A stretch of DNA of 64,000 nt from an uncultured Clostridiaceae bacterium (GCA_948469815.1 CAOKMR010000001.1:6710-70709), one strand, 5' to 3'. Counted from the first letter of the stretch, positions 37,534-58,272 are shown. Made by a program: numbers and translations. Notes: generated by a model not told the origin, from the sequence alone.

Positions 37534-39378
37534 GTGCGACGGGCATGTCGTTTAGTTAATCGGTGAAAGTCCGTAGTGGAGGTATACATCGCTAACCACA
37601 TAGTGAAACACAAGCGTTCCATCGTGAGGTGAGACGTGGAGGAAGTGTGTAGCAAAATCTTGGCTCAATGTACAAAAACTTGATATTAAGGCTTGATAAG
37701 AGGGCAAGGCTACTTGTGAAGTCAAAACCCAAAAGATGTGCGTAACCTTACCAAGTAAATCAAGTGAGTAAAAGAGGAAAATTAAACGACTTACCCCGTG
37801 AGGTCTTGCGGACATTAGTAATAGTGGTCGGAAAAGGTTCATCGCAAGAAGTCAGCAGATACCATAGTAGGAAAATTTTTTTTTGAAGGGTTGAACAATT
37901 TGTAGTGTTTCAAACACCAAAATCAGGGGCGAATAATAGTTAGAATGTGTTAATGAGGAGAGTATAGGCGTATCCTAGAGAGTTACTCAAAATCAATAAT
38001 TTATTCGTCATCGAGAAAGGAGAAGGAGAAACAAGCATGGAACTTTTAGAACAAATCTTAGCAAAAGAAAATCTTAACCAAGCATACGAAAAAGTAAAGG
38101 CAAACAAAGGAGTAGCAGGAGTGGACGGAATAACAGTATATGAGGTAGACGAATATATAAAAGAAAACAAAGAAAAACTGTTAAGCCAAATACGTAAAAG
38201 AAAGTATAAGCCACAGCCAGTAAAAAGAGTACAAATACCAAAAGAAAATGGCAAGAAGAGAAATCTAGGAATACCAACAGTATTTGATAGAATAATACAA
38301 CAAGCAATGGTGCAAGTATTAAGTCCAATATTTGAAAAGCAGTTCAGCGATAATAGTTATGGATTTAGACCTAAGAGGAGCTGTGAACAAGCTGTAATAA
38401 AAGCATTAGAATATCTAAATGACGGTTATGAATGGATAGTAGATATAGACCTAGAGAAGTTTTTCGACACAGTTGACCAAGATAGACTAATCAATATCAT
38501 AATGAGAACAATAAAAGATGGAGATGTAGTATCATTGATAAGAAAATACCTAAGTGCAGGAGTAATGGACAAAGGAATAGCTAAAGCAACAGAAAAAGGA
38601 ACACCCCAAGGAGGAAACCTAAGTCCACTGTTATCAAATATAATGTTAAATGAACTAGATAAAGAATTGGAAGCACGTGGCTTGCAGTTCGTTCGTTATG
38701 CAGATGACTGTATCGTAATGGTTAAGAGTGAGAAAGCAGCGAACCGAGTGTTAAGTTCAATAACGAAATTTATTGAAAAGAAACTAGGTTTGAAAGTAAA
38801 TGCAGAAAAGAGTAAAGTAACAAGACCAACACAAACAAAATATTTAAGCTTTAGTTTTTGGAAAGATACAAAGGGAAGATGGAAACCAAAACCACATATA
38901 AAAGCATATCAAAAATTAAAAAGGAAACTAAAAGCATTAACTAAAAGAAATTGGAGCATAAGCCTAGATAATAGGATAAAGCAAATCAATTACTTAGTTA
39001 GAGGTTGGGTAAATTACTTTAGAATTGCAAATATGAAAAATGCCATAGAAGAAATAGACAAACATTTAAGGACACGAATAAGAGTAATAATCTGGAAACA
39101 ATGGAAAAAGCCACAAAGAAAAGAGAAAGCATTAAAGCAACTAGGAGTAAAACCAGATATTGCATATAACCTAGCACATACAGGAAAAGGATATCAATTA
39201 GTAGCAAAAACAGATTGGCTAAAGTTTGCAATAAATAATGATAGGCTAAGAAAAAGAGGTCTGATATTTCTATCAGACCAATATGCTAAAGTACATGTTG
39301 AAATATAAATTGAACCGCCCATTGCCGAACGGCACGATGTGGTGGTGTGAGAGGGAATAAATAAAATAATTATTTATT
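37534..39378 (+). mobile_element. Group II intron (class-C-like, bacterial) inserted immediately downstream of a rho-independent terminator
   Basis: 5' GUGCGAC at 37534 directly after the hairpin ccccTAGG…CCAGGGG+TTTTTT. Internal RT/maturase ORF. 3' region carries D5/D6-like hairpins ending about 39378, just before the convergent HU stop. Boundaries are approximate. Confidence 0.65.
38037..39308 (+). CDS. Group II intron reverse transcriptase/maturase
   Basis: 423 aa. RT motifs through YADDCIVMV, followed by a maturase (X) domain. Confidence 0.85.
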   Translation: MELLEQILAKENLNQAYEKVKANKGVAGVDGITVYEVDEYIKENKEKLLSQIRKRKYKPQPVKRVQIPKENGKKRNLGIPTVFDRIIQQAMVQVLSPIFEKQFSDNSYGFRPKRSCEQAVIKALEYLNDGYEWIVDIDLEKFFDTVDQDRLINIIMRTIKDGDVVSLIRKYLSAGVMDKGIAKATEKGTPQGGNLSPLLSNIMLNELDKELEARGLQFVRYADDCIVMVKSEKAANRVLSSITKFIEKKLGLKVNAEKSKVTRPTQTKYLSFSFWKDTKGRWKPKPHIKAYQKLKRKLKALTKRNWSISLDNRIKQINYLVRGWVNYFRIANMKNAIEEIDKHLRTRIRVIIWKQWKKPQRKEKALKQLGVKPDIAYNLAHTGKGYQLVAKTDWLKFAINNDRLRKRGLIFLSDQYAKVHVEI

Positions 39379-40567: not shown

Positions 40568-41446
40568 ATGAAGTGTTTAGAAACATGTGAAAGAGAAATA
40601 AACAATTTGCAAAACGATATTGAAAAATATTTAAACGAAGAAAATAATGAAATAAAAATATTTAAAGCTATAATAGATATAGTATATACTGAAAATCCTT
40701 TAAAAATTAATTTTTTTGCTTTAGGTATAAGAGAACTTATTAGAATATTTTTACAGCGTAATAGTAGTGATTCTGATATAAAAAAATGTACATGGTATGA
40801 AGATTATATTGAATATGATGCTGAAAACAGAGAAATAATTACAAGAAAACAAAGAATGCTATATTCAATTTATGGTGGATTAAATTTAAAAGATATAAAA
40901 CAAAAGTTGAATATAGATATAGATGATAAAATAAAGCAATTATTGATTATAATTAATAAATTAAGCAAGTTTACGCATATAGAATCTATCACATCTAATA
41001 ATGAATTTATAATGCAAGAAATAAAAGAGATTTTAAAAACATTTAAAGAATTTCTAGAAAAATTATTTAATTTTAGAGAAGAGCTTTCTTATGACTATGA
41101 AAAGTTTATTTCTGAATTAATAACAGATAAGTTTGCAAATGATGTTATAGAAGATCTTGATATAAAAGCTACTCATTATGAAGATGCATGTTTCTATATT
41201 GAGGATATAAAAATATTATCAATCGATTCAAGTAATATACATTTATCTGTGAGTGGAGACACAAGTGCTACTCTTCAATATGGTTCTAATTCTGATAATA
41301 AAATTGGTGATGGGATTAGAATTTATAAAAATTATTTAACTAACGTTAATATTTCTATTGCAACTGATAAAGCATTTGATACAAATTTTTTAAATGCAAA
41401 AATAGAAGATGTAAAGATAATAGATGATAGAGAAGACATAATGTGA
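40568..41446 (+). CDS. Hypothetical protein
   Basis: 292 aa. No recognised motif. Confidence 0.3.
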   Translation: MKCLETCEREINNLQNDIEKYLNEENNEIKIFKAIIDIVYTENPLKINFFALGIRELIRIFLQRNSSDSDIKKCTWYEDYIEYDAENREIITRKQRMLYSIYGGLNLKDIKQKLNIDIDDKIKQLLIIINKLSKFTHIESITSNNEFIMQEIKEILKTFKEFLEKLFNFREELSYDYEKFISELITDKFANDVIEDLDIKATHYEDACFYIEDIKILSIDSSNIHLSVSGDTSATLQYGSNSDNKIGDGIRIYKNYLTNVNISIATDKAFDTNFLNAKIEDVKIIDDREDIM

Positions 41447-44749: not shown

Positions 44750-45442
44750 ATGGTTAAGGTACTTATTGCTGAGGATAATATGTCAATCAGTATACATCTT
44801 TCAAATATAATTAATTTTACAAAATCTGCTCAGGCAATATCTATTATTAATGATGAAACAAAAGTCTATGAAGCAATAAAATTATTAGAACCTGAAATCG
44901 TTATACTTGATTTAAAATTACAAAAGGGAGATGGATTTGAGATTTTACGAAAGATAGAAAATGATATTGCAATAAAAACAAGAGTCGTAATATATTCAGA
45001 AGAAACAAATTACATGGCTAGAGTGTTGGAATTCAAGAGTGTAGAGAAAGTATTTAATAAAATTGAATCTTATGAAGATGTTGGATTAGAAATTCAGAAA
45101 ATAGCAAAAAATATTGCTAATAAAGAATTGGATAAAAAAATTTACGAAATACTCTTTAAAATGGGATTTAGAGCTGAACATAAAGGAACACAACTTATTA
45201 AAGAATGTATTGAAATGTCAACTAAAGAAAAACAAGAAAATTTAAAGACAATTTATGAAAAATTAGCAGAAGTAGAAGAAAAAAAATCATATACAATTAA
45301 AGCAGATATACAGGTAGCAGTTAATAAAATGTGGCTATATGGTAATAAAGAAAAAATAAGAAAGTTTTTACGATTAGGTGAATATGAAAAGCCAAGTCCT
45401 AAATGCGTTGTTTCTATGGTAAGGTATTATATTGAGCAGTAG
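44750..45442 (+). CDS. Spo0A-like regulator (degenerate receiver plus Spo0A C-terminal DNA-binding domain)
   Basis: Receiver-like N-terminus (VLIAEDN…IVILDLKL). The C-terminal part (GFRAEHKGTQLIKECI…TIKADIQVAVNKMW) resembles Spo0A_C. Confidence 0.45.
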   Translation: MVKVLIAEDNMSISIHLSNIINFTKSAQAISIINDETKVYEAIKLLEPEIVILDLKLQKGDGFEILRKIENDIAIKTRVVIYSEETNYMARVLEFKSVEKVFNKIESYEDVGLEIQKIAKNIANKELDKKIYEILFKMGFRAEHKGTQLIKECIEMSTKEKQENLKTIYEKLAEVEEKKSYTIKADIQVAVNKMWLYGNKEKIRKFLRLGEYEKPSPKCVVSMVRYYIEQ

Positions 45443-45543: not shown

Positions 45544-46071
45544 CTACCAATTACCTTGTAATGCTATTTTGCTACCAGCAGATGCTTGACTGAAACCTGT
45601 ATCAACAAAGCCATAATCAACGCCATCTCCTGAAACACGAACCCATTGACCTTTTGTACTTTTTACATATGTAACTTTCATCCAATCACTGTGTTTTTGT
45701 CCTGGTGTGCAAGTATCTGTAGCTACATACATTCCTGCTGCTACTGTTCCCCAACGATCACTATTTTGACCTGCTTTATAAACAGGCATACTTCTTCTCA
45801 TACGATAAATTTTATAGTCTTTACCATTAATATTCTCTATTGCATAAGGAAGCTGATCAATACCTGCATGGTAAAATGTTTGATCGGAGATTATTCCAGA
45901 AGTTATTACACCACTTGAGTTTCTAAATGCTACAACTTCATTATGTTCTGTATTACAAATACAAAGTTCATTAGGGTATAATCTTCCTACTATTTTGTTT
46001 GATAGTATAGGATATTCTCTTATTATATAGGTATTTTTAGTATTATTTATACCAATATAAATTTGACTCAT
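45544..46071 (-). CDS. Hypothetical protein, paralog of 53939-54517, with SH3b-like C-terminus
   Basis: Shares …GxVAAGxxVAT…WVRVxGDGxxxGFVDTG…GNW with the paralog. Flanked by the terminator hairpin aatctcattc/gaatgagatt. Confidence 0.3.
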   Translation of the reverse strand: MSQIYIGINNTKNTYIIREYPILSNKIVGRLYPNELCICNTEHNEVVAFRNSSGVITSGIISDQTFYHAGIDQLPYAIENINGKDYKIYRMRRSMPVYKAGQNSDRWGTVAAGMYVATDTCTPGQKHSDWMKVTYVKSTKGQWVRVSGDGVDYGFVDTGFSQASAGSKIALQGNW

Positions 46072-46302: not shown

Positions 46303-46776
46303 ATGGAAGAAGAAATGTTAAAAATATTTAATAAAACAACTACTACAATAAGTGGCATTTGTACAATACTCACATCAATATTTGGAATTGAATGGGTATT
46401 GTTTGCAGGATATTTACTATTGAATCTAGTGGATTATTTTACAGGAACTATAAAAGCTAAGGTAAAAAAATCTGAGAGTTCTAATAGAGGATTAGTTGGG
46501 GTAGTTAAAAAAATTTGTTATTGGATTCTTATAGGGGTATCGTTTTTTATATCATATTTACTAGTACAATTAGGAAATAAAATTAACATTAATTTAGAAT
46601 TTATCATGCTTTTTGGCTGGTTTACTCTTGCTTGTCTAATAATAAACGAGTCTAGAAGCATTATAGAGAATCTAATTGAAATTGGTATAAATGTTCCAGA
46701 ATTTCTAAAAAAAGGATTAGAACAATATCAAAAAATAATAGATAACACAATAAATAATTTAGATAATAAGAAATAA
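46303..46776 (+). CDS. Holin (toxin-secretion / phage-lysis holin family, TcdE/UviB-like)
   Basis: 157 aa with three TM helices. …VLFAGYLLLNLVDYFTGTIKA… resembles that family. Confidence 0.55.
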   Translation: MEEEMLKIFNKTTTTISGICTILTSIFGIEWVLFAGYLLLNLVDYFTGTIKAKVKKSESSNRGLVGVVKKICYWILIGVSFFISYLLVQLGNKININLEFIMLFGWFTLACLIINESRSIIENLIEIGINVPEFLKKGLEQYQKIIDNTINNLDNKK

Positions 46777-47354
46777 TTGCACTTTATGAATGGTATATAA
46801 TATTTCTGTTACTGTGTGAAAAAAGTATCTTTTTTTATCTTTTTCGATATTTACATAATTTATACTATATACTAAATATAATAACTGTGATGGTGAAAAG
46901 GCAATATATTAGTAAGTAAATTAAAAATATGATATTGATTATGAGCCTTAGTCTTACCTTTAATTGAGTTCTAGTCATGAATAAGTAAAGAATTAAAACA
47001 TTTATTTTTATAAATCTTACACTTAAATTCAATTAAAATAACAATTTTCTTATGTACAAGGGGCGAAATTCGTCTCTTTTTGTATTTACAAAAAACAGCT
47101 ATAATCACTTTAGAAGTTTATACAGAGTTTTTATTTTTATATGTTACCGAAAAAGTTACTTCAATACTTTTAATATAATAATTAATTTACATGATTTTAT
47201 AAAAATTAAACGATAAAAAATTTTAGGATTGAAATTATGTAAAGAATTTTACACTATTATACATTAGTATACATTTTATTACATTCGACACCATTTTTCA
47301 TACATAACTGTAAGAATATAGTAAAATCACTAAAAAGAATCAAAAATGTAGGAG

Positions 47355-48125
47355 GTGAATATGAAAAAAGGTATTGATATATCATATCACAATGGAAGTG
47401 TAAATATGTCAGAGGTGAAGTTAAGTGGAATAGAATTTATTATTTTAAGACTAGGATATAGAAAAAAAGAAAATCATATTGATAAGAAATTTTATGAAAA
47501 TTACAATAATGCTATTCAACAAGGAATACCGATAGGAGTATATATATATTCTTATGCTCTTAATACAAATGATGCTTTAAAGGAAGCACAGTTTGTTTTA
47601 GATACAGTAAAAGATCTTAAGTTGGAGTATCCAATTTATATTGATATGGAGGATGCAGATAATTATAAATCACAAAATAAAGTAAATTACTCTACTTGTA
47701 TTGATATATGTGAGACTTTTTGCAATTGTATAGAAAATGCTGGTTATTATGTGGGAATTTATGCTAATTTAGATTGGTTAAATAATAAAATAAATGACAG
47801 TAGATTAGACAAATTTGATAAATGGGTAGCTCAGTGGTCAAATAGTTGTAAGTATAAAAAGGAATTTGGAATGTGGCAATATTCATCTAATGGAAATATA
47901 TCTGGAATAGCTGGAAAAGTAGATTTAAACTATGATTTGAGAGATTATCCTTCTATAATAAGAAATGCTAAACTAAATTTATTAACTGAAAAAAATAATA
48001 TCTATGTAGTGCAATCTGGTGATACTCTTACTAAAATTGCAAAAAAATTTAATACAAACTGGAAAGAAATCTATAATTTAAATAAAGAAACGATAGGTGA
48101 TAATCCTAATTTTATCCAAATTTGA
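47355..48125 (+). CDS. GH25 muramidase (lysozyme) with C-terminal LysM domain
   Basis: GIDISYHNG, GVYIYSY and IYIDMED fit GH25. C-terminal YVVQSGDTLTKIAKKF…NPNFIQI fits LysM, which appears to stop early. Confidence 0.8.
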   Translation: MNMKKGIDISYHNGSVNMSEVKLSGIEFIILRLGYRKKENHIDKKFYENYNNAIQQGIPIGVYIYSYALNTNDALKEAQFVLDTVKDLKLEYPIYIDMEDADNYKSQNKVNYSTCIDICETFCNCIENAGYYVGIYANLDWLNNKINDSRLDKFDKWVAQWSNSCKYKKEFGMWQYSSNGNISGIAGKVDLNYDLRDYPSIIRNAKLNLLTEKNNIYVVQSGDTLTKIAKKFNTNWKEIYNLNKETIGDNPNFIQI

Positions 48126-48153
48126 CAAAAATTAATTGTTAGGGAGGAATAGA

Positions 48154-48507
48154 ATGGAGGACAAGAAAACAAAAGAGTTTATATTGAATGAATTATCAAA
48201 GTTTAGTTTTAGAAAGTATACAAAAGGATTCAGATACCTTAATGAAGCAATATATATGTGCATAAAGGATGCTGATGCTATAGAAAATTTACATAAAAAT
48301 GTGTTCCCTTTTATTGCAGAGAAATATAAAGAGAAATCGCCATCAAATGTTAAGTGGTGTATAGAACAATCTGTAAGGACTATGTATAATAATACAGAAG
48401 AGAGTAAAATATGTAAATATTTTAATATAGGAGAAAATACAAAACCTAGTTTAAAATCTATTATATATACAGTACTGTGTAAATATGAATGGAATAACAA
48501 TGTATAA
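48154..48507 (+). CDS. Stand-alone Spo0A C-terminal-domain-like protein
   Basis: ATG after AGGGAGGAATAGA. …KGFRYLNEAIYMCI…NVKWCIEQSVRTMY parallels Spo0A_C. Confidence 0.4.
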   Translation: MEDKKTKEFILNELSKFSFRKYTKGFRYLNEAIYMCIKDADAIENLHKNVFPFIAEKYKEKSPSNVKWCIEQSVRTMYNNTEESKICKYFNIGENTKPSLKSIIYTVLCKYEWNNNV

Positions 48508-50068: not shown

Positions 50069-51457
50069 ATGGAAGAACTAGTAGAGAAAGTGAAAAATGG
50101 AGATAAAGAAATATACAGAGATCTAATATCAGATATGAAAGAAGAACTATATAGAATAGCTAAAAAGAAAATTAAAAATTCTAATGATATAGAAGATGTC
50201 ATCCAAGAAACTATAATTAATGGATATTTTAAAATAGGACAGTTAAGAAATAACAAACATTTTAGAACATGGATTATAAAAATACTAATTAATGAATGTA
50301 ATCTATTTTACAGAAATAAAAGACACGAAGATGATATAAAAAATAGATATAAAGATGAGTTAGAAACAAAAGGTTTCAAGAATGATTCTGTAGGGTTTGA
50401 TAATCTAATACAAGATTTAAATGATATCGAAAAAAATATTTTTAAATTATATTATGAAGAAGAACAATCTATAGAAGAGATATCTAATATTTTGAAAATT
50501 AATAAAAATACCATAAAAACAAAGTTACGTAGAGGAAGAGAAAAAGTAAATTCTACATATAAGAAGATTATTATGACAGTTGTAATCTTAGCAATTATAA
50601 CAACAGGAATAACATTTGGAAAAGATATAATAAATTACTTAAAAGATATCTTTAATTTAAGCAGTATAGGTCAAAATAACGATGGAATATTGATGGCAAT
50701 AGAGGAAAAAGAATGGATACAAAATATTGAAATGGACTATATAGAGTTAGACAAAGGATATAAAATAAGAATTGATTACTTATTAGTTGATGATATTAAT
50801 ATGTATATGATTTATGACTTGAAATCGGATGAAGATCTGAATGAATATGATAGAATGAGTATAATAGATTTAACCATTAAAGATGAAAATAATAATATTA
50901 TATTTAATAATAAAGATCTAATGGAAGAAACTATAGTTCAATTAGAAGGATGGAAGAATATAGAAACTGAGTCAAACACCAATATAAAAGAGTTAAACTA
51001 TATGATATCAAATGGAAATTTCAATATGAAAAAATTAGAAATAACTTTTTCAAAAGTTATGATTTATAGTAGTAATAATCCAAGCAAAGACAGTAAAATA
51101 ATTAATGAAAATGAAAAGAAGATATATATAGACATAGATGAAAAGTTTATTAATACCAATACTATTGAATATATTACAGAATATGAAGATAATAATGAAT
51201 ATAATATTCAAAAGGCTATAATAACAGAAACAGGTTTTTATGCCATTATAAAGAGTAAAAATATGGATGTAAATTTTACATTAGAAATAGATGAGCATTA
51301 TAAACATAAATGTAGTTATAGGCTATTAAGTTCATATAACAGTGAAGAAATATATTATTATTTGATTTTATCAGATATCAACTTAACAGATAATTATAAA
51401 CAGTTATTATTAAAAAATAAAAATGAAGTTATAAGGTTATATAAAAAGGAAATCTAG
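50069..51457 (+). CDS. ECF-type sigma-70 factor fused to a transmembrane helix and ~270-aa extracytoplasmic domain
   Basis: Sigma region 2 (DVIQETIINGYFKIGQLRN…FRTWIIKILINE) and region 4 (…SIEEISNILKINKNTIKTKLRRGREKV), then a TM helix (IIMTVVILAIITTGITFG) and a large C-terminal domain. Confidence 0.6.
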   Translation: MEELVEKVKNGDKEIYRDLISDMKEELYRIAKKKIKNSNDIEDVIQETIINGYFKIGQLRNNKHFRTWIIKILINECNLFYRNKRHEDDIKNRYKDELETKGFKNDSVGFDNLIQDLNDIEKNIFKLYYEEEQSIEEISNILKINKNTIKTKLRRGREKVNSTYKKIIMTVVILAIITTGITFGKDIINYLKDIFNLSSIGQNNDGILMAIEEKEWIQNIEMDYIELDKGYKIRIDYLLVDDINMYMIYDLKSDEDLNEYDRMSIIDLTIKDENNNIIFNNKDLMEETIVQLEGWKNIETESNTNIKELNYMISNGNFNMKKLEITFSKVMIYSSNNPSKDSKIINENEKKIYIDIDEKFINTNTIEYITEYEDNNEYNIQKAIITETGFYAIIKSKNMDVNFTLEIDEHYKHKCSYRLLSSYNSEEIYYYLILSDINLTDNYKQLLLKNKNEVIRLYKKEI

Positions 51458-51482: not shown

Positions 51483-51911
51483 TTACCAACTATAGGATGT
51501 TAGTTCTATATTTATAGTATCAGAAGAATTACATTTACATTCAATAGAAACATCACTAGAACCAGACAAACCTAAGAATATGTAGTCAAATTTTTTTAAT
51601 GAACCATTTGTAGATATTGTATATTTATTAGTAACTTTACGACTAGCAATGGTTACATATATTGTTACATCGTAAATATTTCCAGATGATGATGTAGACT
51701 TAGCTTCAATAGCCATAAAAGTGCCATCATAGTTTTTAGTTATTGGTCTACTACTACCTTTAAATTGAATAGAACCTGTAGAATAGTAGGCATAAGGTTG
51801 AATACTATATGGACTTGAAGCCTTAACTGGAGTAGAACATATAAATAAATTCACTAACAAGAATGACATTAGTATGCAAGTAGATAATTTCGTAACTAGC
51901 TTTTTCATCAA
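51483..51911 (-). CDS. Small secreted protein (signal peptide)
   Basis: 142 aa. Signal peptide with …VKASS cleavage-like site. Ser/Thr-rich mature part with two Cys. Confidence 0.3.
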   Translation of the reverse strand: MMKKLVTKLSTCILMSFLLVNLFICSTPVKASSPYSIQPYAYYSTGSIQFKGSSRPITKNYDGTFMAIEAKSTSSSGNIYDVTIYVTIASRKVTNKYTISTNGSLKKFDYIFLGLSGSSDVSIECKCNSSDTINIELTSYSW

Positions 51912-52044
51912 TACACCTCCTTTATAAAATTTTAATAAATTATATCAACGAATATATAAATAAATATAAAAAGATAAAAAAAAATAAAATGATAATGAAA
52001 CCTAATAAGAATTTTTTGTATCTAATTAGTAGAAACATTGTGAG

Positions 52045-52761
52045 GTGATAAAGATGGTGAACATGTTAATAGCAAATAGAGATATGTTCAAATTAAAAAA
52101 ATTAGTAAATGAAGTTATTACAAAAAATGAAAATATTAGGATAGCAAAAATAGCAAATAATAAAGAAGAAACAATAAAAATCTTAAATAATGATAATATA
52201 GATGTTATTTTACTAGATATAAATATCATTAAGCCTAACGAAAATCTAATATCAAATATGATAAAAAAAGAAAAGCAGGAAAAATATAAAGATTCTATAA
52301 TGTTAATCACAAAAAATTTCAAAGAATCACAAAAAGTAATAGGAAATAAAATGATATTTGATTACTTAATTGAAGAAGAAGATAGCAATGAGATATTATA
52401 TAAAATTAATAGAATGATTATAAGTAAAGATTTAGAAGGAAAACGAAAGAAAATTATTGAAGAGTTAAAATATATAGGCTATAATATAGAACATGTTGGT
52501 ACTAATTACTTAGCAGATGCAATTATTCAAATGTATTTAAATAGAGGAGCTATGTTAGATAATCTTCAAAAAGATGTATATCCAATAATATCAAAAATGC
52601 ACAATAAACCTATACATAATATAAAATGTGATATTACTAGAGCAACAGAATGTATGTATTATGAATGTGATAATGAAAGATTAAAAAAGTATTTTGGATT
52701 TTATGATGATAAGAAGCCAACAGCAAAGACGGTCATTTTTACAATATTGAATAAAATATAA
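52045..52761 (+). CDS. Spo0A-like regulator (atypical receiver plus Spo0A_C-like domain)
   Basis: Receiver-like N-terminus lacking the usual acidic pocket. The C-terminus (…LKYIGYNIEHVGTNYLADAIIQMY…) resembles Spo0A_C. Confidence 0.4.
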   Translation: MIKMVNMLIANRDMFKLKKLVNEVITKNENIRIAKIANNKEETIKILNNDNIDVILLDINIIKPNENLISNMIKKEKQEKYKDSIMLITKNFKESQKVIGNKMIFDYLIEEEDSNEILYKINRMIISKDLEGKRKKIIEELKYIGYNIEHVGTNYLADAIIQMYLNRGAMLDNLQKDVYPIISKMHNKPIHNIKCDITRATECMYYECDNERLKKYFGFYDDKKPTAKTVIFTILNKI

Positions 52762-52802
52762 AAAATATTAAGTTAAATATAGAAAATAAAAAGGAGAAAA
52801 AT

Positions 52803-53861
52803 ATGAAAAAGAAGTTAATTGTAATCATAGTTATAATTTTAATAATAAGTAGTATTATTGGAATAGGAATCATTAAAGGGATAAATGAGGAAAAAGAAGA
52901 TGAATCAAAAAAAGAGATTACTTTTAATCAAGAAAATGAAAAAGTAAAAGACACAAATGCAGAGATAAATGAGTTGCTAGAAAAAAGCGATATTTCTAAT
53001 TATTTACCTAGAGATATATCAGAAATAAAATTAATAAATTACCAAACAGAAGACCAAAAGACAGATATTTATACAGATAGCGATTTAATATTAGAGTTAG
53101 TAAGAATTCTACATAATGTTACATGGACTGAGACAGATGAAAATATAGAATGTTGTTATTTTGGTATTGATATTAAAGGTAAAGATAGTACTACTAGGCT
53201 AGAATTAGAAGCTATACATGTAACCGAAACACAAGAGGAGTTAGGATATATAAAACTAATAAAAGGCAATTTGAAATCTAATTTTACTGTAAATGGTGGA
53301 GCATATTATGAATTATATGGTTTTGAAAAACCAAAGTATTATCTTCATAAAAGTAATTTGGAACTACCTAATAAAGATATATGCTATAAAGCAAAAGAAA
53401 AAGCATTAACAGGTTTAAATGAAAACGAAATAAAAGAACTACAGACAACCATATATGATTATCAATGTATGATGGAGAGTATATTAGGTGAAAGTACAAG
53501 GTTATTAAAAGAGAAAACAAGTTATTATTGGAGACAACAAATTTATGATGAGGTATTTACAGATAATATAACAGGAACAAAAGTGTATAATGGAAATAGG
53601 TTAATAAAAGTATTACAAGAGGTAAAAAAACAGATCGAAATTATAAAGGATGAAGAAACTAAAAGAGATTTAGAGAAATTCTGTAATTTATTGAAAGAAG
53701 GACTTGATGAACATGATATTGAAAAGTGCTTTGAAGCACACGAGATATTACATGATTATAGTATTTGGGTAATAAATTATCCAGTAATGAATCTAATGAT
53801 AGAACCATATGACTGGAGTGCGTTTAAAACATATTTTGGTAAGGCATCTATAATAAAATAA
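52803..53861 (+). CDS. Membrane-anchored hypothetical protein
   Basis: N-terminal TM followed by a 330-aa extracytoplasmic domain. Confidence 0.3.
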   Translation: MKKKLIVIIVIILIISSIIGIGIIKGINEEKEDESKKEITFNQENEKVKDTNAEINELLEKSDISNYLPRDISEIKLINYQTEDQKTDIYTDSDLILELVRILHNVTWTETDENIECCYFGIDIKGKDSTTRLELEAIHVTETQEELGYIKLIKGNLKSNFTVNGGAYYELYGFEKPKYYLHKSNLELPNKDICYKAKEKALTGLNENEIKELQTTIYDYQCMMESILGESTRLLKEKTSYYWRQQIYDEVFTDNITGTKVYNGNRLIKVLQEVKKQIEIIKDEETKRDLEKFCNLLKEGLDEHDIEKCFEAHEILHDYSIWVINYPVMNLMIEPYDWSAFKTYFGKASIIK

Positions 53862-53938
53862 AAGAGAGTATTTCAGTATATTTATACTAAAATACTCATT
53901 TAAATTTGTGCCAAAAATTATAAATTATTTGCTAAAAT

Positions 53939-54517
53939 TTACCAAGAACCATAAAAAGGTATTTTAGAATAACCTGATGCAGATCGAATGCCAGTATCAA
54001 CAAAACCATGCTTAAATCCATCACCAGTAACTCTAACCCAATTACCAGCAGAACTTTGCACATAATCGATAGCTTTACAATATGGTTTATCTTCTCCAAC
54101 AGTCGAACTATTAGTGGCAACAAGACAACCAGCTGCAACATATCCCCAATGGTGTCCTTTAGCTGTTATTACTTCTTTCTTAGAACGCATTTTATATACT
54201 TTATATAGCTCGTCTTTTCCTGTTTCAGGATTTTTAATATTTGCAGTACCATAAGGGAATTCTTCGCAAAATGTAGCAGAATAAGCTTCTCCAGGAATAC
54301 CACCAGGTAGAGGATATCTGTTTATATCGACAGTAGTTCCAGTAAATACTCCAGCAGAATTCAAGTAATTAATACCAACAAAATCTCCATCTCCTCCATA
54401 AAGAACATAAGCTTCTCTAGGGTTTATTTTGCCAACAAGCTTGTAGTTATTCATTGCATCATAAATATTATATGCTTTGTTAGTTTTATTGATAAGTAGT
54501 TTTAAAAAAAATGCCAT
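53939..54517 (-). CDS. Hypothetical protein, paralog of 45544-46071
   Basis: Shared C-terminal motifs with the paralog (see 45544-46071). Confidence 0.3.
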   Translation of the reverse strand: MAFFLKLLINKTNKAYNIYDAMNNYKLVGKINPREAYVLYGGDGDFVGINYLNSAGVFTGTTVDINRYPLPGGIPGEAYSATFCEEFPYGTANIKNPETGKDELYKVYKMRSKKEVITAKGHHWGYVAAGCLVATNSSTVGEDKPYCKAIDYVQSSAGNWVRVTGDGFKHGFVDTGIRSASGYSKIPFYGSW

Positions 54518-54780
54518 ATGGATCCCTCCTTTCTTTTAGATATAATAAAATAATAATACCTTTGTTAAGTAAAAAATTAAAAAGTGGATAAAAAAGGTTT
54601 TATATGGTTGAAGAAAGATAATTATTAAAGACCATATATAAATAACTATAATAATTAAAATATATGAAGTAAATTGGCTTTCAGATATAGTATAAAATAT
54701 AAGAAAATTATAAAAAGATAAAAAAATGAAAATGATTTAGAATAGTTTTATGATTGATTATAAGAGAAAAAATTGAATAA

Positions 54781-54868
54781 CATGATATTTGAAAATGCTT
54801 TGAAGCACATGAAATACTGCATGATTATATGATATACTTTGGTAAGAGATGTATCATAAAATAAAAAG
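54781..54868. repeat. Degenerate duplicate of the 3' end of gene 52803-53861
   Basis: catgatatttgaaaatgctttgaagcacatgaaatactgcatgattat… matches 53713-53760 and …ttggtaag…ataaaataaaag matches 53836-53866. Confidence 0.5.
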
Positions 54869-54949
54869 TATTTTCATACTGTTTGTATGGAAATACTTTT
54901 TAATGCTAATAATTTTTACTTTGCACAGTCAGGAGATTAAATAGTATTT

Positions 54950-55786
54950 TTAGTTTTTATATGTAATTTCTTTTATCTTTTTAACATTATAAATTGCAGA
55001 GGTTTCAGAAATTTCAAAAGAATTTTTTAATACTATATTTGCATATACTTCATGAAGTTCTGTTTTCAAATTATTATTTTTCACTATACTATCTTCAGAT
55101 ATTTCGAGAATTATTGGATATATAAATTTATCATTTTTAAATGATATATAAGTAATTTCTGCAAATAAATAGGTAACATTGAAATCCTCAAGATATGGAG
55201 TTTGGTATCTAATATGTAGATTTGATAATTCTTTTTTATCATTATATTCATTTAAGATAAGTTCTGACAATTCATTTTCTTTTAGTATATATATAGGTGA
55301 ATCGCCATTAATTTTTGCTATGTTAGGAGATGAATTACTAGTAGAATATGAAATTGTACCATTATAAATTAATAAGTCATTTTCTTCTATATCATCAAAT
55401 GATATTGTGCAAGAATTAGTATAACTTAAAATTTCAATATCTAAAGGAGTGTATAGAGTAAGAAAAGTATAGTCAGGGATATCGCAAACAATATGATCAT
55501 TATAAATCATATAGTCATTTTTTATATTTAAAATATTATAATTATATTCTGTGTTACTACCATTATACGATGAAAATATGATTCCTTTAACCTTTTCAGT
55601 ATAGTCTTGAAATGTAATATTTGATATATCTGTATGTGTAGCAACATTATCATTTGGGGTATAATTTGAAGTATCATTAGTATATAAAACGTTATTTAAA
55701 ATTGATTTTAAGGTTACAAAAATACATAATATAATAATGATAAAGATAATAATAATTATTAGTTTTAGTAAATTAAATTTTTTCAT
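54950..55786 (-). CDS. Membrane-anchored hypothetical protein
   Basis: N-terminal TM followed by an Asn/Tyr-rich extracellular domain. Confidence 0.3.
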   Translation of the reverse strand: MKKFNLLKLIIIIIFIIIILCIFVTLKSILNNVLYTNDTSNYTPNDNVATHTDISNITFQDYTEKVKGIIFSSYNGSNTEYNYNILNIKNDYMIYNDHIVCDIPDYTFLTLYTPLDIEILSYTNSCTISFDDIEENDLLIYNGTISYSTSNSSPNIAKINGDSPIYILKENELSELILNEYNDKKELSNLHIRYQTPYLEDFNVTYLFAEITYISFKNDKFIYPIILEISEDSIVKNNNLKTELHEVYANIVLKNSFEISETSAIYNVKKIKEITYKN

Positions 55787-55987
55787 TTTTTCCTCCTATC
55801 ATATATTAGATACAAAATTTTCTATAATAGTTTCATAAATATAAAAAAATAAGTGTATATTCTAAAATAAAATATATAATCCATACTAATTTATCTATAT
55901 TATACATCAAAATCTACCCAATAGGAAGTAATTTTAGTATAAATTCTATTGGGTAGATTATAAAATTAAATATATGCTAAAACCTTA

Positions 55988-57898
55988 TTATAAATAATAA
56001 GCATTGACAGTAGTAGTAATTTTAATTTTTTTATCTGTAACTCTAACATAACCAGTATCAGTTGTTCTAAAAACATCATATGAGATATAATATTCTATAT
56101 TATCATTAATAAATATAGAGTCACTATTTTGTGTGGATGATAAATTATATATTTTACTATCTACATTAGCAACAACATGCCCTTCTGTGCAAATACCATC
56201 TTCAAATGGTTGAGGACTCTTAAACCATACATCAACAATCATGTCATCATATTTTTCACCGTTCTCACCACTTGCTTGAATAGATAAATTTAATTTTCTA
56301 CCTGCATATGTAAGCCTTCTACCAACATTACGTCCAGATTCTAATAAAACAGTTCCGTAGTAATAATCTCTTGGAGATAACTCAGTAACAACAGGAAATT
56401 TATTAGAGAAAATATTTTTATCTATTGTAAAGTTATCATTTATTTTAACATCCGTTTGAAATTGATCAAGATTCCAATTAGTAGGCATTTTAAATCCCAT
56501 ATTGCCTGAATATCCAGAAGAAGAATTGCTAACAAAGCAAGTTGTTGCGTATCCTTTATCCATTACACGTGAACAAACATTTCTAGTTCCATACACACCA
56601 GCTTTGTAATAGGTAGAACCTCCATCAATTGCTTTAAAATAGGGAAGGGCGTATTTTTCTATTTGATTATCAAGCATATCAATATCAACTACAAAATAAA
56701 TTATAGTTCCCTTAGGAATACAATAACTTCTTGCTCTTGAGTATGCTTCTTGAACGTCTTTCCATCCTTGAGACTCTGTAAAGTAGCTTATGCTTGGTTC
56801 ACCATCTCTTTGATATATAGGATAAAATTTTATTCCATTATCTATCATACCTTTAGCTTCATCAAATGCTAACTCTTTTCCTTGATTACCACTGATATAT
56901 CTTCCAACAATAGATACTCCTAAATTTTTCACAATATCTATTCGATTAATTTTACGAATTTCACTATGGATAGTATATGATGTATCGATGGCATTGTAAG
57001 GTCTATCTTGATTACCTGTACTTACTAATAAAGCCATCCAAGTGTTAGTATCGCATATATTTGTTTGCTCTAAAATCATGTCTTTTTGAAACCTTCCTAT
57101 AGTAGAGCCTAAGAATGAATCCCATTTATTAGAATTTATGCCAATATCTATTGGATACCCATTACATACCAATGCATATCTAACAAGTTCTATTGCATCT
57201 TGCTCAGTCTCACTATTAAGACTACCATTACTAGGGACAATAGGTAAACGTGATTTAGTACCATTGCCGAATTTGCCATCTATATTTGAGCCAGTAAATC
57301 CCTCTATCTTTTGAAGCACAGCTATAAGTGATTTATTCATTTCTCTACTATAAATTCCATCGCAAGGTGTTAATCCGATGTAATTTTCATATTTATTATT
57401 AAGTTTTTGTTGAATCTCTCTAATATTACTATTTCCACCACGTACAAGTTTAAATTGATCCATAGAAAGCAATGATTTCATTATATTAAGAGTAACTGTA
57501 GAACTCGTATCTGAGCACCCAGCATCTTTTTTAATGGAAGTAATTGCAGAACCTGTTCCAGAGTAAAAATGATTAGTTATATCATTTGAGCCTATTGAAT
57601 AACCTTTACAGAAACAAGCACCTTGAATAATTCCATATATATTATCTTCTGTTGTATCGTCTGAGGATTGTTGTTGTACACCATTAGGAAATCTTGCTTT
57701 AAATTTTGATGTAGTAGAAGGACCAAAAGAAGTTGATGTAGCTGTAATACCTAATTCTATTTGGAAAGCTCTAAGAAGTGCATGAACTGTACCCCAACCA
57801 GTAATTCCATCAACAACAATATCTTCACCGTATCCTTGTTTACCATGATAAGTTTCGTTAAGCCATTGTTGAGTTTTTTCAACTAATATATCTGCCAT
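55988..57898 (-). CDS. Peptidoglycan hydrolase-like protein: three PG_binding_1 repeats plus a C-terminal glycoside-hydrolase-like (DUF1906/GH25-like) domain
   Basis: Repeats of the …L(N)..Y…DG..G..T..AL..FQ… pattern. C-terminal …VGRYISGNQGKELAFDEAKGMIDNGIKFYPIYQ…. ATG chosen after GAAAGAAGG. No signal peptide. Confidence 0.45.
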   Translation of the reverse strand: MADILVEKTQQWLNETYHGKQGYGEDIVVDGITGWGTVHALLRAFQIELGITATSTSFGPSTTSKFKARFPNGVQQQSSDDTTEDNIYGIIQGACFCKGYSIGSNDITNHFYSGTGSAITSIKKDAGCSDTSSTVTLNIMKSLLSMDQFKLVRGGNSNIREIQQKLNNKYENYIGLTPCDGIYSREMNKSLIAVLQKIEGFTGSNIDGKFGNGTKSRLPIVPSNGSLNSETEQDAIELVRYALVCNGYPIDIGINSNKWDSFLGSTIGRFQKDMILEQTNICDTNTWMALLVSTGNQDRPYNAIDTSYTIHSEIRKINRIDIVKNLGVSIVGRYISGNQGKELAFDEAKGMIDNGIKFYPIYQRDGEPSISYFTESQGWKDVQEAYSRARSYCIPKGTIIYFVVDIDMLDNQIEKYALPYFKAIDGGSTYYKAGVYGTRNVCSRVMDKGYATTCFVSNSSSGYSGNMGFKMPTNWNLDQFQTDVKINDNFTIDKNIFSNKFPVVTELSPRDYYYGTVLLESGRNVGRRLTYAGRKLNLSIQASGENGEKYDDMIVDVWFKSPQPFEDGICTEGHVVANVDSKIYNLSSTQNSDSIFINDNIEYYISYDVFRTTDTGYVRVTDKKIKITTTVNAYYL

Positions 57899-58272
57899 AA
57901 AAAAACCTTCTTTCAATTATTAAATTTTTAAATTCATTATATTTCTGATCAGAATTTTAATAAATATTAATAATATTATAAAGAATGTATTATAACAAGA
58001 TTCAGAAAAAAGATAAATGTGGTGTTTTATTGTTGATAGTTGATTTATTAATAAAATCTAATTATTTAAATATTTAAACTAAAGGATGATGATGTAAAAA
58101 AAGTATTAGCTAGATATAATGGAACAAATAATGATGCTACAGAATATGGTATATCAAACTTTGAACTATATCAGATATTTGAAAAGTATAATAAGTCTAT
58201 TAGAGGGGAATAAATTGACAGTATAGTAATAAAGTAATATAATTCATAAGAGAAAGGTTAGAATGGTGAACC

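Follow-up and report, generated by a model that had tools for sequence, protein, structure and literature searches.

The endolysin PlyC reportedly consists of PlyCA with a separately encoded PlyCB. Mosaic module joints and the gene units called 'morons' of phages and other mobile elements were reportedly treated by Hendrix/Juhala 2000, and homology-facilitated illegitimate recombination by de Vries and Wackernagel 2002. In wall hydrolases, Psm, the muramidase endolysin of Clostridium perfringens phage phiSM101 (PDB 4KRT), carries tandem SH3_3 wall-binding domains, and NlpC1 of Trichomonas vaginalis (PDB 6BIM) has an SH3b pair N-terminal to its NlpC/P60 enzyme. In phage phi2638A, short endolysin isoforms from internal translation starts are reported to heteromerise with the full-length enzyme (PMC12203907). 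The locus described here lies in a DNA stretch of 64,000 nucleotides (nt) from an uncultured Clostridiaceae bacterium (GCA_948469815.1, CAOKMR010000001.1:6710-70709), hereafter the window, which is part of a conjugative element of an uncultured mouse-gut Clostridia bacterium with G+C content of 25%. In it, a gene for an SH3b-like protein stands between a gene for a membrane-anchored protein (gene A) and a decayed second copy of an A-type gene end. The region is rather probably a recombination scar, or joint, between two modules of a mosaic conjugative element, and this estimate covers the whole explanation, including the function proposed for the SH3-like protein. The features of the site, with lengths in amino acids (aa) and base pairs (bp), are as follows.

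52803-53861, plus strand: gene A, 352 aa, N-terminal membrane anchor
53866-53897, both strands: bidirectional terminator hairpin from the terminator scan, common to the convergent gene A and SH3-like gene
53939-54517, minus strand: SH3b-like gene, 192 aa, convergent with gene A
54518-54652, minus strand: proximal upstream region of the SH3-like gene, 135 bp, with ribosome-binding site and presumed promoter
54653-54704, no strand: filler, 52 bp, after the cut-off upstream region of the SH3 gene and before the relic
54705-54864, plus strand: relic (delta-A') left from the final ~75 codons of a gene of the A family, relic stop codon at 54862-54864
54862-54902, no strand: relic terminator hairpin with intact 18-bp stem, separating the GH642-278 pair from the SH3-like gene
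54950-55786, minus strand: gene for a 278-aa membrane-anchored protein of unknown family, following the GH642 gene; its stop codon is the module boundary
55988-57916, minus strand: GH642, 642 aa, a wall hydrolase lacking a signal peptide, with a PG_binding_1 domain and an Rv2525c-like glycoside-hydrolase domain

Repeated end of an A-family gene

The end of gene A returns beyond the SH3-like gene, with 82% identity over 65 nt between 53696-53760 and 54765-54829 and 85% identity over 33 nt between 53831-53863 and 54834-54866. Gapped alignment widens the repeat to 53638-53920 versus 54705-54915, with about 70 nt of gene A absent from the copy, and the longest exact run between the two copies is 14 nt. 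The local alignment score of the repeat is 87, compared with 23 ± 3 (maximum 42) in 1000 dinucleotide-preserving shuffles (z = 21) and with a maximum of 33 among 413 other tiles of the window. In tblastn, residues 296-352 of gene A match 54757-54861 with 42% identity (E 4.5e-6), and no further SH3 or A relic was found by tblastn elsewhere in the window. These values bear out the original prediction, made from the sequence alone, that the gene A end is repeated here in degenerate form. The bounds given for it at that time were slightly narrow, as the relic starts near 54705, about 75 nt before the proposed 54781, and its hairpin runs to 54902.

The relic carries stop codons in frame, a single frameshift, and a deletion amounting to 66 nt net. 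Translated in gene A's frame, it reads ...HDI(stop)KCFEAHEILHDY-MIYFGKRCIIK(stop), and its upstream half is shifted by one base and full of stops; the intact gene A ends in ...HDIEKCFEAHEILHDY...YFGKASIIK. The 12 relic codons of KCFEAHEILHDY encode protein identical to that of gene A and differ from it at five nucleotides, all synonymous. Only two outgroups (loci L021 and L026) are informative for the polarisation of these differences, and both share CAT GAA with the relic, which is suggestive at most. Substitutions in the relic affect 25 of about 48 GC sites versus 18 of about 172 AT sites, in an alignment that is partly uncertain, and this GC-to-AT bias is consistent with neutral decay. When gene A was compared with its counterpart in L009, the ratio of nonsynonymous to synonymous divergence (dN/dS) was 0.30 for the whole gene and 0.05 for the last 75 codons, which are thus very strongly constrained. 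Identity between the relic and either intact A gene amounts to 65-83%. Because of this level of identity, the synonymous-only stretch, and the strong constraint on the A end, the relic more probably derives from a separate A-family gene (A') that diverged while functional and was truncated later; as far as sequence comparison can tell, this fits better than a fresh copy of A's own end.

The hairpin at 53866-53897 has folding energies of -12 kcal/mol on the plus strand and -16.4 kcal/mol on the minus strand (z = -3.7 and -6.4, respectively), and counterpart hairpins lie 3' of the A genes in L017, L024, and L026. The relic hairpin folds with -19.6 and -15 kcal/mol (z = -7.6 and -6.8) and surpasses the terminator of gene A in stability. 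Relative to the hairpin of L009, four of its pairs have changed in a compensatory manner and one by wobble, and none is disrupted; it was thus maintained while the coding relic decayed. It is located directly 3' of the minus-strand GH642-278 pair and upstream of the promoter region of the SH3 gene. We infer promoter and terminator use across the A/SH3/relic site, where the relic hairpin would still serve as a terminator or insulator. A scan of 53600-55000 for the sigma-70 consensus gave 11 sites, compared with 10.3 in shuffled sequence, and no promoter was called.

Arrangements in related loci

Three arrangements were found in the window and its relatives, given here in the orientation of the window.

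Type I (window, L001, L004, and L008): gene A forward, SH3(192) reverse, then the joint, the relic forward, and 278 and GH642 reverse
Type II (L002, L003, and L007): gene A forward, SH3(192) reverse and divergent from GH771, which is followed by 153 and GH802; no relic
Type III (L009, L010, L012, L015, and L016): gene A forward, 278, GH636, and SH3(193) reverse, the last divergent from GH631

In type III, gene A directly adjoins the 278 gene, and an SH3 allele with 74% identity lies on the far side of the hydrolase. The window and L002 are 99.2% identical over 51901-54652 and unrelated beyond. L002 and L009 remain homologous (~70%) across the break of the window, through a remarkably well conserved intergenic region and into their divergent hydrolase genes (GH771 and GH631, respectively). 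The break at ~54652 is therefore specific to type I, where the SH3 gene no longer has the distal half of its upstream region or the hydrolase gene divergent from it. The proximal part, 54518-54652, is kept in L002, L009, and L017, and homology to all of them ends at ~54652.

On the right-hand side, L009 is the informative relative. Its identity to the window is 95% for the gene A coding sequence, 95% for the 278-aa gene, 99% for the spacer between 278 and the GH gene, and 95% for the GH gene, compared with 75% and 83% for the two parts of the relic and 65% for the relic hairpin and spacer. The block of high identity (95-99%) restarts exactly at the 278 stop, 54950. L009 has one A end with hairpin beside the 278 stop, and this single end aligns to both copies of the window; the relic thus occupies the place of an A gene beside 278. 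The 278 stop is a recurrent breakpoint, followed by the relic in the window, by intact A in L009, and by an IS256-type transposase gene (Transposase_mut) in L011 and L013 (9768-9858), which break at the same nucleotide.

Homologs of gene A adjoin an SH3-like gene in L017-L021, L024, L026, and L033 and are about 5 kb away from one in L022 and L028. The convergent, terminator-sharing pair recurs in L017, L024, L026, and L033 with SH3 proteins only 44-52% identical to that of the window, so the adjacency is old and not due to recent insertion. In L024, an SH3 gene stands between two A paralogs, in an order and orientation equal to those of A, SH3, and the relic in the window. This locus (3532-9590 on a contig of 1.19 Mb) encodes two SH3-like proteins (175 and 184 aa), two A paralogs (330 and 328 aa), and two 148-aa proteins, with the duplicated genes arranged around an IS110 element, and it shows that the module duplicates in tandem. 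L033 and L017 have the same backbone (sigma factor, orf142, Spo0A-like gene, and gene A with 92% identity) and very different SH3 and hydrolase alleles. Synonymous divergence (dS) between the SH3 alleles of the window and L009 is 0.55, and that of the backbone genes is 0.12-0.17. From these comparisons, the SH3/hydrolase part behaves as a replaceable allelic module beside the conserved gene A.

Origin of the arrangement

We infer the following order of events. Module 1 would be the old convergent pair of gene A and SH3b-like gene with one bidirectional terminator; in relatives, the SH3 upstream region of this module runs on into a divergent Rv2525c-type wall hydrolase gene. Module 2 would be the minus-strand GH642-278 pair, the ancestor of which was probably convergent with its own A-family gene, A', as in L009 and L016 today. 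Through recombination or deletion, the upstream region of SH3 was probably connected at ~54652 with codon 279, or one near it, of A', leaving a left half that is type II-like (A, SH3, and proximal upstream region) and a right half that is type III-like (A' convergent to 278-GH642). The joint is called illegitimate because there is no homology between its sides and the 52-bp filler is present. It may have formed by recombination between two co-resident related elements or by deletion between tandem modules in one element, L024 being an existing case of two A genes around SH3. The last ~75 codons of A' and their terminator would have been stranded. The coding relic would then have decayed through the stops, the frameshift, and the 66-nt deletion, and the hairpin would have been kept by selection, presumably still terminating the GH642-278 transcript and shielding the SH3 gene. 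Such a scar is ordinary mobile-element mosaicism.

Some observations weigh against this explanation. The 52-bp filler had no BLAST match to any related locus and is left unexplained; by eye it is ~38% identical to the preceding part of gene A, as is expected by chance in AT-rich DNA. JGI metagenome contigs, a collection that did not return the relic itself, were scanned for a living A' allele that has the relic's codon variants, and the exact pattern had no match, while a degenerate version of the pattern matched one locus, L033, which has an ordinary A allele. The window and L002 are 99% identical across A and SH3 versus the deep decay of the relic, and later homologous exchange must be assumed. 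The order of events is also not fixed, as L009 could derive from a window-like form and the hairpins are equidistant. In its full form this last alternative takes A, SH3, relic, and 278 as the ancestral order and the empty site of L009 as the product of later recombination between A ends that deleted SH3. It would agree with the single A end and hairpin of L009 aligning to both copies of the window, and direct repeats of ~70-200 bp can support deletions by homologous recombination. Here, however, the repeats are merely 75-85% identical, the A coding end of L009 is identical to intact A and not to the relic, L009 has a different and deeply diverged SH3 allele elsewhere, and the origin of the relic is left unexplained; this reversed order is quite unlikely.

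The original prediction had seen in the site a cassette of ~0.9 kb that was inserted into, or recombined beside, the 3' end of gene A with partial duplication. Spelled out, a small mobile or recombined unit of the SH3-like gene and its promoter would have entered the 3' part of gene A and brought or regenerated a replacement end, with the displaced original end decaying downstream, as in 3'-end integration or homology-facilitated illegitimate recombination anchored in A. Direct repeats of the A end indeed flank the SH3 gene, the dS values given above show much greater divergence of the SH3 allele than of the genes around it, and the empty site expected in other strains, with A directly beside the 278 region, is present in L009 and L016. 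Nevertheless, the convergent A/SH3 pair occurs without any relic in L002 and L003, where it is 99% identical, and in the distant L017, L024, L026, and L033; the same arrangement without duplication in related genomes had been named in advance as evidence against the insertion. Gene A is 99% identical to that of L002 over its full length, so no crossover is visible within A. Seen from gene A, the relic stands beyond the SH3 gene and joins the 278-GH642 module without interruption. Its identity to the A genes of L009 and of the window is 65-83%, compared with 95-99% between window and L009 for the adjacent 278-GH genes, and its best-kept stretch differs from gene A by synonymous changes only. 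Neither terminal inverted repeats, short exact target duplications, nor recombinase genes were found at the ends of the unit. The first interpretation as a whole is partly supported, and its insertion of a cassette is not supported and very unlikely. The joint between two modules remains the preferred explanation.

Two kinds of mobile unit were considered separately and rejected. An insertion sequence, miniature inverted-repeat transposable element, or other transposon does not agree with the absence of inverted repeat pairs at 53903/54704 or with a flanking repeat that is a ~200-bp degenerate gene end; the unit has no other open reading frame (ORF), and its sole other copy in the window is a paralog with 37% identity. 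An att-type element that rebuilds a 3' end was rejected because there is no recombinase gene in 53862-54949 and the repeats share just 75-85% identity, one of them being shortened by a deletion of 66 nt; L009 does have an empty site, yet the A-SH3 joint is also present without the second repeat (L002).

SH3b-like proteins

A second SH3b-like gene of the window is located beside a lysis pair.

45544-46071, minus strand: SH3b-like paralog, 175 aa, divergent from the holin / GH25-LysM lysis pair
46303-46776, plus strand: holin (Phage_holin_4_1), adjoining the 175-aa paralog
47355-48125, plus strand: signal-less GH25+LysM muramidase, near the 175-aa paralog and forming the lysis pair with the holin (46303-48125)

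Alignment of the 192-aa with the 175-aa protein over 188 positions gives 37% identity (E 6e-30), and the motifs quoted in the original prediction are present in both; the paralogy proposed there is hereby confirmed. An ortholog of the 175-aa protein (49% identity) follows holin-GH766-148 in L024. The 192-aa protein has no signal peptide, and its C-terminal tail is conserved (...GFVDTG...SGYSKIPFYGSW); an invariant tail, ..IPFYGSW, is specific to the family. Its AlphaFold2 model (pLDDT 89) has two SH3b-like barrels, which are small beta-barrels superposable on the SH3b domains of wall hydrolases. Its Foldseek neighbours are wall-binding SH3b domains of peptidoglycan hydrolases and not DNA-binding folds. 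The family profile matches SH3 domains in PDB weakly (2kt8 with E 0.014 and 2kyb with E 0.18). dN/dS of the SH3-like gene against the L009 allele is 0.31.

In a profile search of 1.84 billion representative proteins, the family comprised 263 clusters at 50% identity, 139 of them at E <= 1e-10. It has no Pfam or PHROG family and no source name; in PHROGs, the SH3-like proteins, gene A, and the 278-aa protein had no match. Nearly all members are free-standing proteins of 170-200 aa. Two fusions are P0040 (580 aa), with two module copies followed by an NlpC/P60-like domain with the catalytic-cysteine motif DCSG, and P0144 (1651 aa), with the SH3-like module at the N-terminus of an Ig-like/RCC1 surface-type protein; both are without signal peptide. 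A viral contig (L032, 5911-6276) encodes a 121-aa version with the C-terminal barrel and tail only. According to a scan of species-representative genomes and further contig look-ups, hosts of the gene are other mouse-gut Clostridia known from metagenome-assembled genomes (MAGs), an Acutalibacteraceae genome, Clostridium leptum DSM 753, an Acetatifactor genome, and human-gut contigs.

Function of the SH3-like protein

The SH3-like protein, with two SH3b barrels and no signal peptide, may act outside the cell membrane as an accessory for wall binding or targeting. It would be encoded by its own gene and released together with the neighbouring signal-less hydrolases, which depend on a holin. This is proposed tentatively, with a chance slightly under even. 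By the authors' count, a holin and/or wall hydrolase is encoded within a few kb of the SH3-like gene in 13 of 15 distinct contexts. Prophage L030 carries tail genes, holin, Amidase_3 endolysin, and SH3-like gene on one strand, and in L016, L019, L021, and L030, but not in the window, the SH3-like gene lies on the same strand directly before or after the lysin gene. A secreted or wall-binding effector or immunity pair had been suggested originally; the evidence leans instead to a lysin-associated wall-binding accessory.

Several results count against such a role or against the fold on which it rests. The Foldseek E-values of the model are 0.01 or worse, Pfam SH3_3 (PF08239) does not match the 192-aa protein, and it reaches 19.1 bits in the 175-aa paralog (E 0.0015), below the cutoff of 27. 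The NlpC/P60 match of P0040 in Pfam is also weak and below cutoff (E 0.003). The neighbouring hydrolases have wall-binding domains of their own (PG_binding_1, LysM, and SPOR), so that an extra subunit is not obviously needed, and the SH3 gene of the window is a separate transcription unit. The slot after phage lysis genes is, moreover, the classic place for unrelated cargo genes. The protein could accordingly be cytoplasmic, as a regulator, an inhibitor or immunity factor of the lysis module (anti-lysin or transcription factor), or unrelated cargo. The missing signal peptide would suit this as well, as would the hydrolases' own binding domains, the family's lack of any annotation, and the frequent divergent position to holin and hydrolase genes, which is typical for small regulators. 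It is nevertheless somewhat unlikely, as the structural neighbours are wall-binding and not DNA-binding, both fusions have extracellular-type partners, and signal-less endolysin-type proteins of holin modules can leave through holin lesions.

In a wider reading, which is doubtful, gene A, the double-SH3b protein, and the signal-less PG_binding_1/Rv2525c hydrolase would be the three parts of a single wall-hydrolase system that depends on a holin, has not been described before, and occurs in conjugative elements and prophages of clostridia. Its SH3/hydrolase cassettes would be swapped against a constant backbone (sigma factor, Spo0A-like gene, gene A ... DUF6076, serine recombinase). If true, the system would resemble polymorphic killing/immunity or host-specificity loci and could act in interbacterial lysis or in wall opening during mating, and the relic would be a trace of cassette turnover.

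Gene A and the right-hand module

Gene A had no match to a Pfam or PHROG family. In its AlphaFold2 model, a four-helix bundle of generic type lies C-terminal to an alpha/beta domain. Homologs at distant loci are 26-41% identical, and those in L017 and L033 are 92% identical. Invariant residues are YYLH, H313, H317-D318-Y319, and DW..YFG. The sequence AHEILH was considered as the HExxH motif of a zinc metalloprotease and rejected, as two of the 12 sequences in the alignment (P0027 and P0031) have Lys in place of Glu; in this region only H313, H317, D318, and Y319 are invariant among the 12, and gene A has no peptidase Pfam match. It can be speculated that gene A and the 278-aa protein are a receptor, regulator, or protective factor for the hydrolase. 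GH642 matches phrog_15213 and endolysin PHROGs.

About 130 bp upstream of the Rv2525c-type hydrolase genes are much better conserved than the flanking coding sequence (window 57927-57970, L002 5745-5870, L009 5733-5860, and L017 5620-5760). The shared motif in this stretch is (A/T)TTCATTATATT(G/T)CTGATCAG, with the palindrome CTGATCAG inside it. It is probably a shared operator or leader, perhaps a target of the element's sigma factor or Spo0A-like regulators.

Source element

The G+C content of the window is ~25% throughout. Its first 43 kb encode a conjugation apparatus (VirB4/TraG-like ATPase, type IV secretion system pilin, and coupling protein), SpaA/thioester adhesins, a recombination directionality factor, and a group II intron. 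At 43-63 kb there are genes for one tyrosine and two serine recombinases (one complete with 548 aa, the other running off the window end), three regulators with Spo0A_C domain, a sigma factor fused to a DUF4179 domain, and the wall and lysis genes for holin, GH25-LysM muramidase, and GH642 with its PG_binding_1 and Rv2525c-like domains. Identical or related sequence was found only in gut metagenomes and in MAGs of a mouse gut catalogue labelled 'uncultured Clostridia bacterium'. Plasmid and phage collections gave zero near-identity DNA matches to 52000-55900 and no tblastn match to the SH3-like protein, and thus contain no annotated reference for it. From these data, the A/SH3/relic region is placed in the variable accessory region of the conjugative element.

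The group II intron was the sole match in an Rfam scan of the window (at 37.6 kb), with none in the region of interest.

37618-39308: group II intron within the conjugative element, with the Rfam D1-D4 models at 37618-37891 and a reverse transcriptase/maturase ORF at 38037-39308

A 292-aa protein encoded at 40568-41446 has both 'pPIWI-associating nuclease' domains (pP_pnuc_1 and pP_pnuc_2) and may be an element-borne defence gene product; no Argonaute/PIWI gene was recognised among its scanned neighbours. The three proteins with the Spo0A C-terminal DNA-binding domain are encoded at 44750-45442, 48136-48507, and 52045-52761; two of them have a receiver domain, which is degenerate in one. Each of these genes adjoins a lysis-related or SH3-like gene, a pairing seen again in L024 and L029. 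In the sigma factor (50069-51457), a 462-aa protein, sigma-70 regions 2 and 4 are combined with the DUF4179 domain and an extended C-terminal portion. The protein resembles a sigma factor that carries an anti-sigma or sensor module of its own as a fusion, and it is conserved with 45-91% identity in L016, L029, and L033.

Comparison with known systems

The scar can be used as a worked example in which a stranded gene end marks a joint, its terminator is kept by compensatory change, and its coding part decays. Like the mosaic joints and morons of other elements, it has breakpoints at gene boundaries, adjacent segments of sharply different divergence, and a gene-plus-promoter unit that is present or absent at the site among relatives. 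The upstream region of this unit, with the presumed promoter, is conserved, and its terminator is common to gene A. The SH3 gene is no foreign add-on beside A: the pair is conserved in distant elements, and it is the adjacent module that the scar is part of. That the gene stays linked to A and to hydrolases in these elements argues against one with no functional link to its surroundings.

Of greater interest is the unannotated, widespread, and mostly stand-alone double-SH3b family tied to holin and lysin genes in elements of gut Clostridia, and also its conserved pairing with the unannotated membrane protein of gene A. In Psm and NlpC1 the SH3 pairs are parts of an enzyme, whereas here the pair is a free-standing protein of ~180 aa with its own gene, found in ~260 clusters. 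The family further differs from these pairs in scoring below the SH3_3 threshold and in its invariant tail, and its wall binding is predicted only. The likeness to PlyC lies in the idea that wall-binding and catalytic functions are on separate polypeptides of one lysis module, where any complex would be putative. The partner hydrolases here keep their own binding domains, the gene in the window is a separate, terminator-insulated unit, and PlyCB has no sequence relation to the SH3-like protein. With phi2638A, the family would share a separate wall-binding polypeptide from one lysis module. If the SH3-like protein is a wall-targeting subunit, the family could supply binding modules for engineered lysins against gut Firmicutes and would represent a third way to build modular lysins, beside domain fusion and internal-start isoforms.

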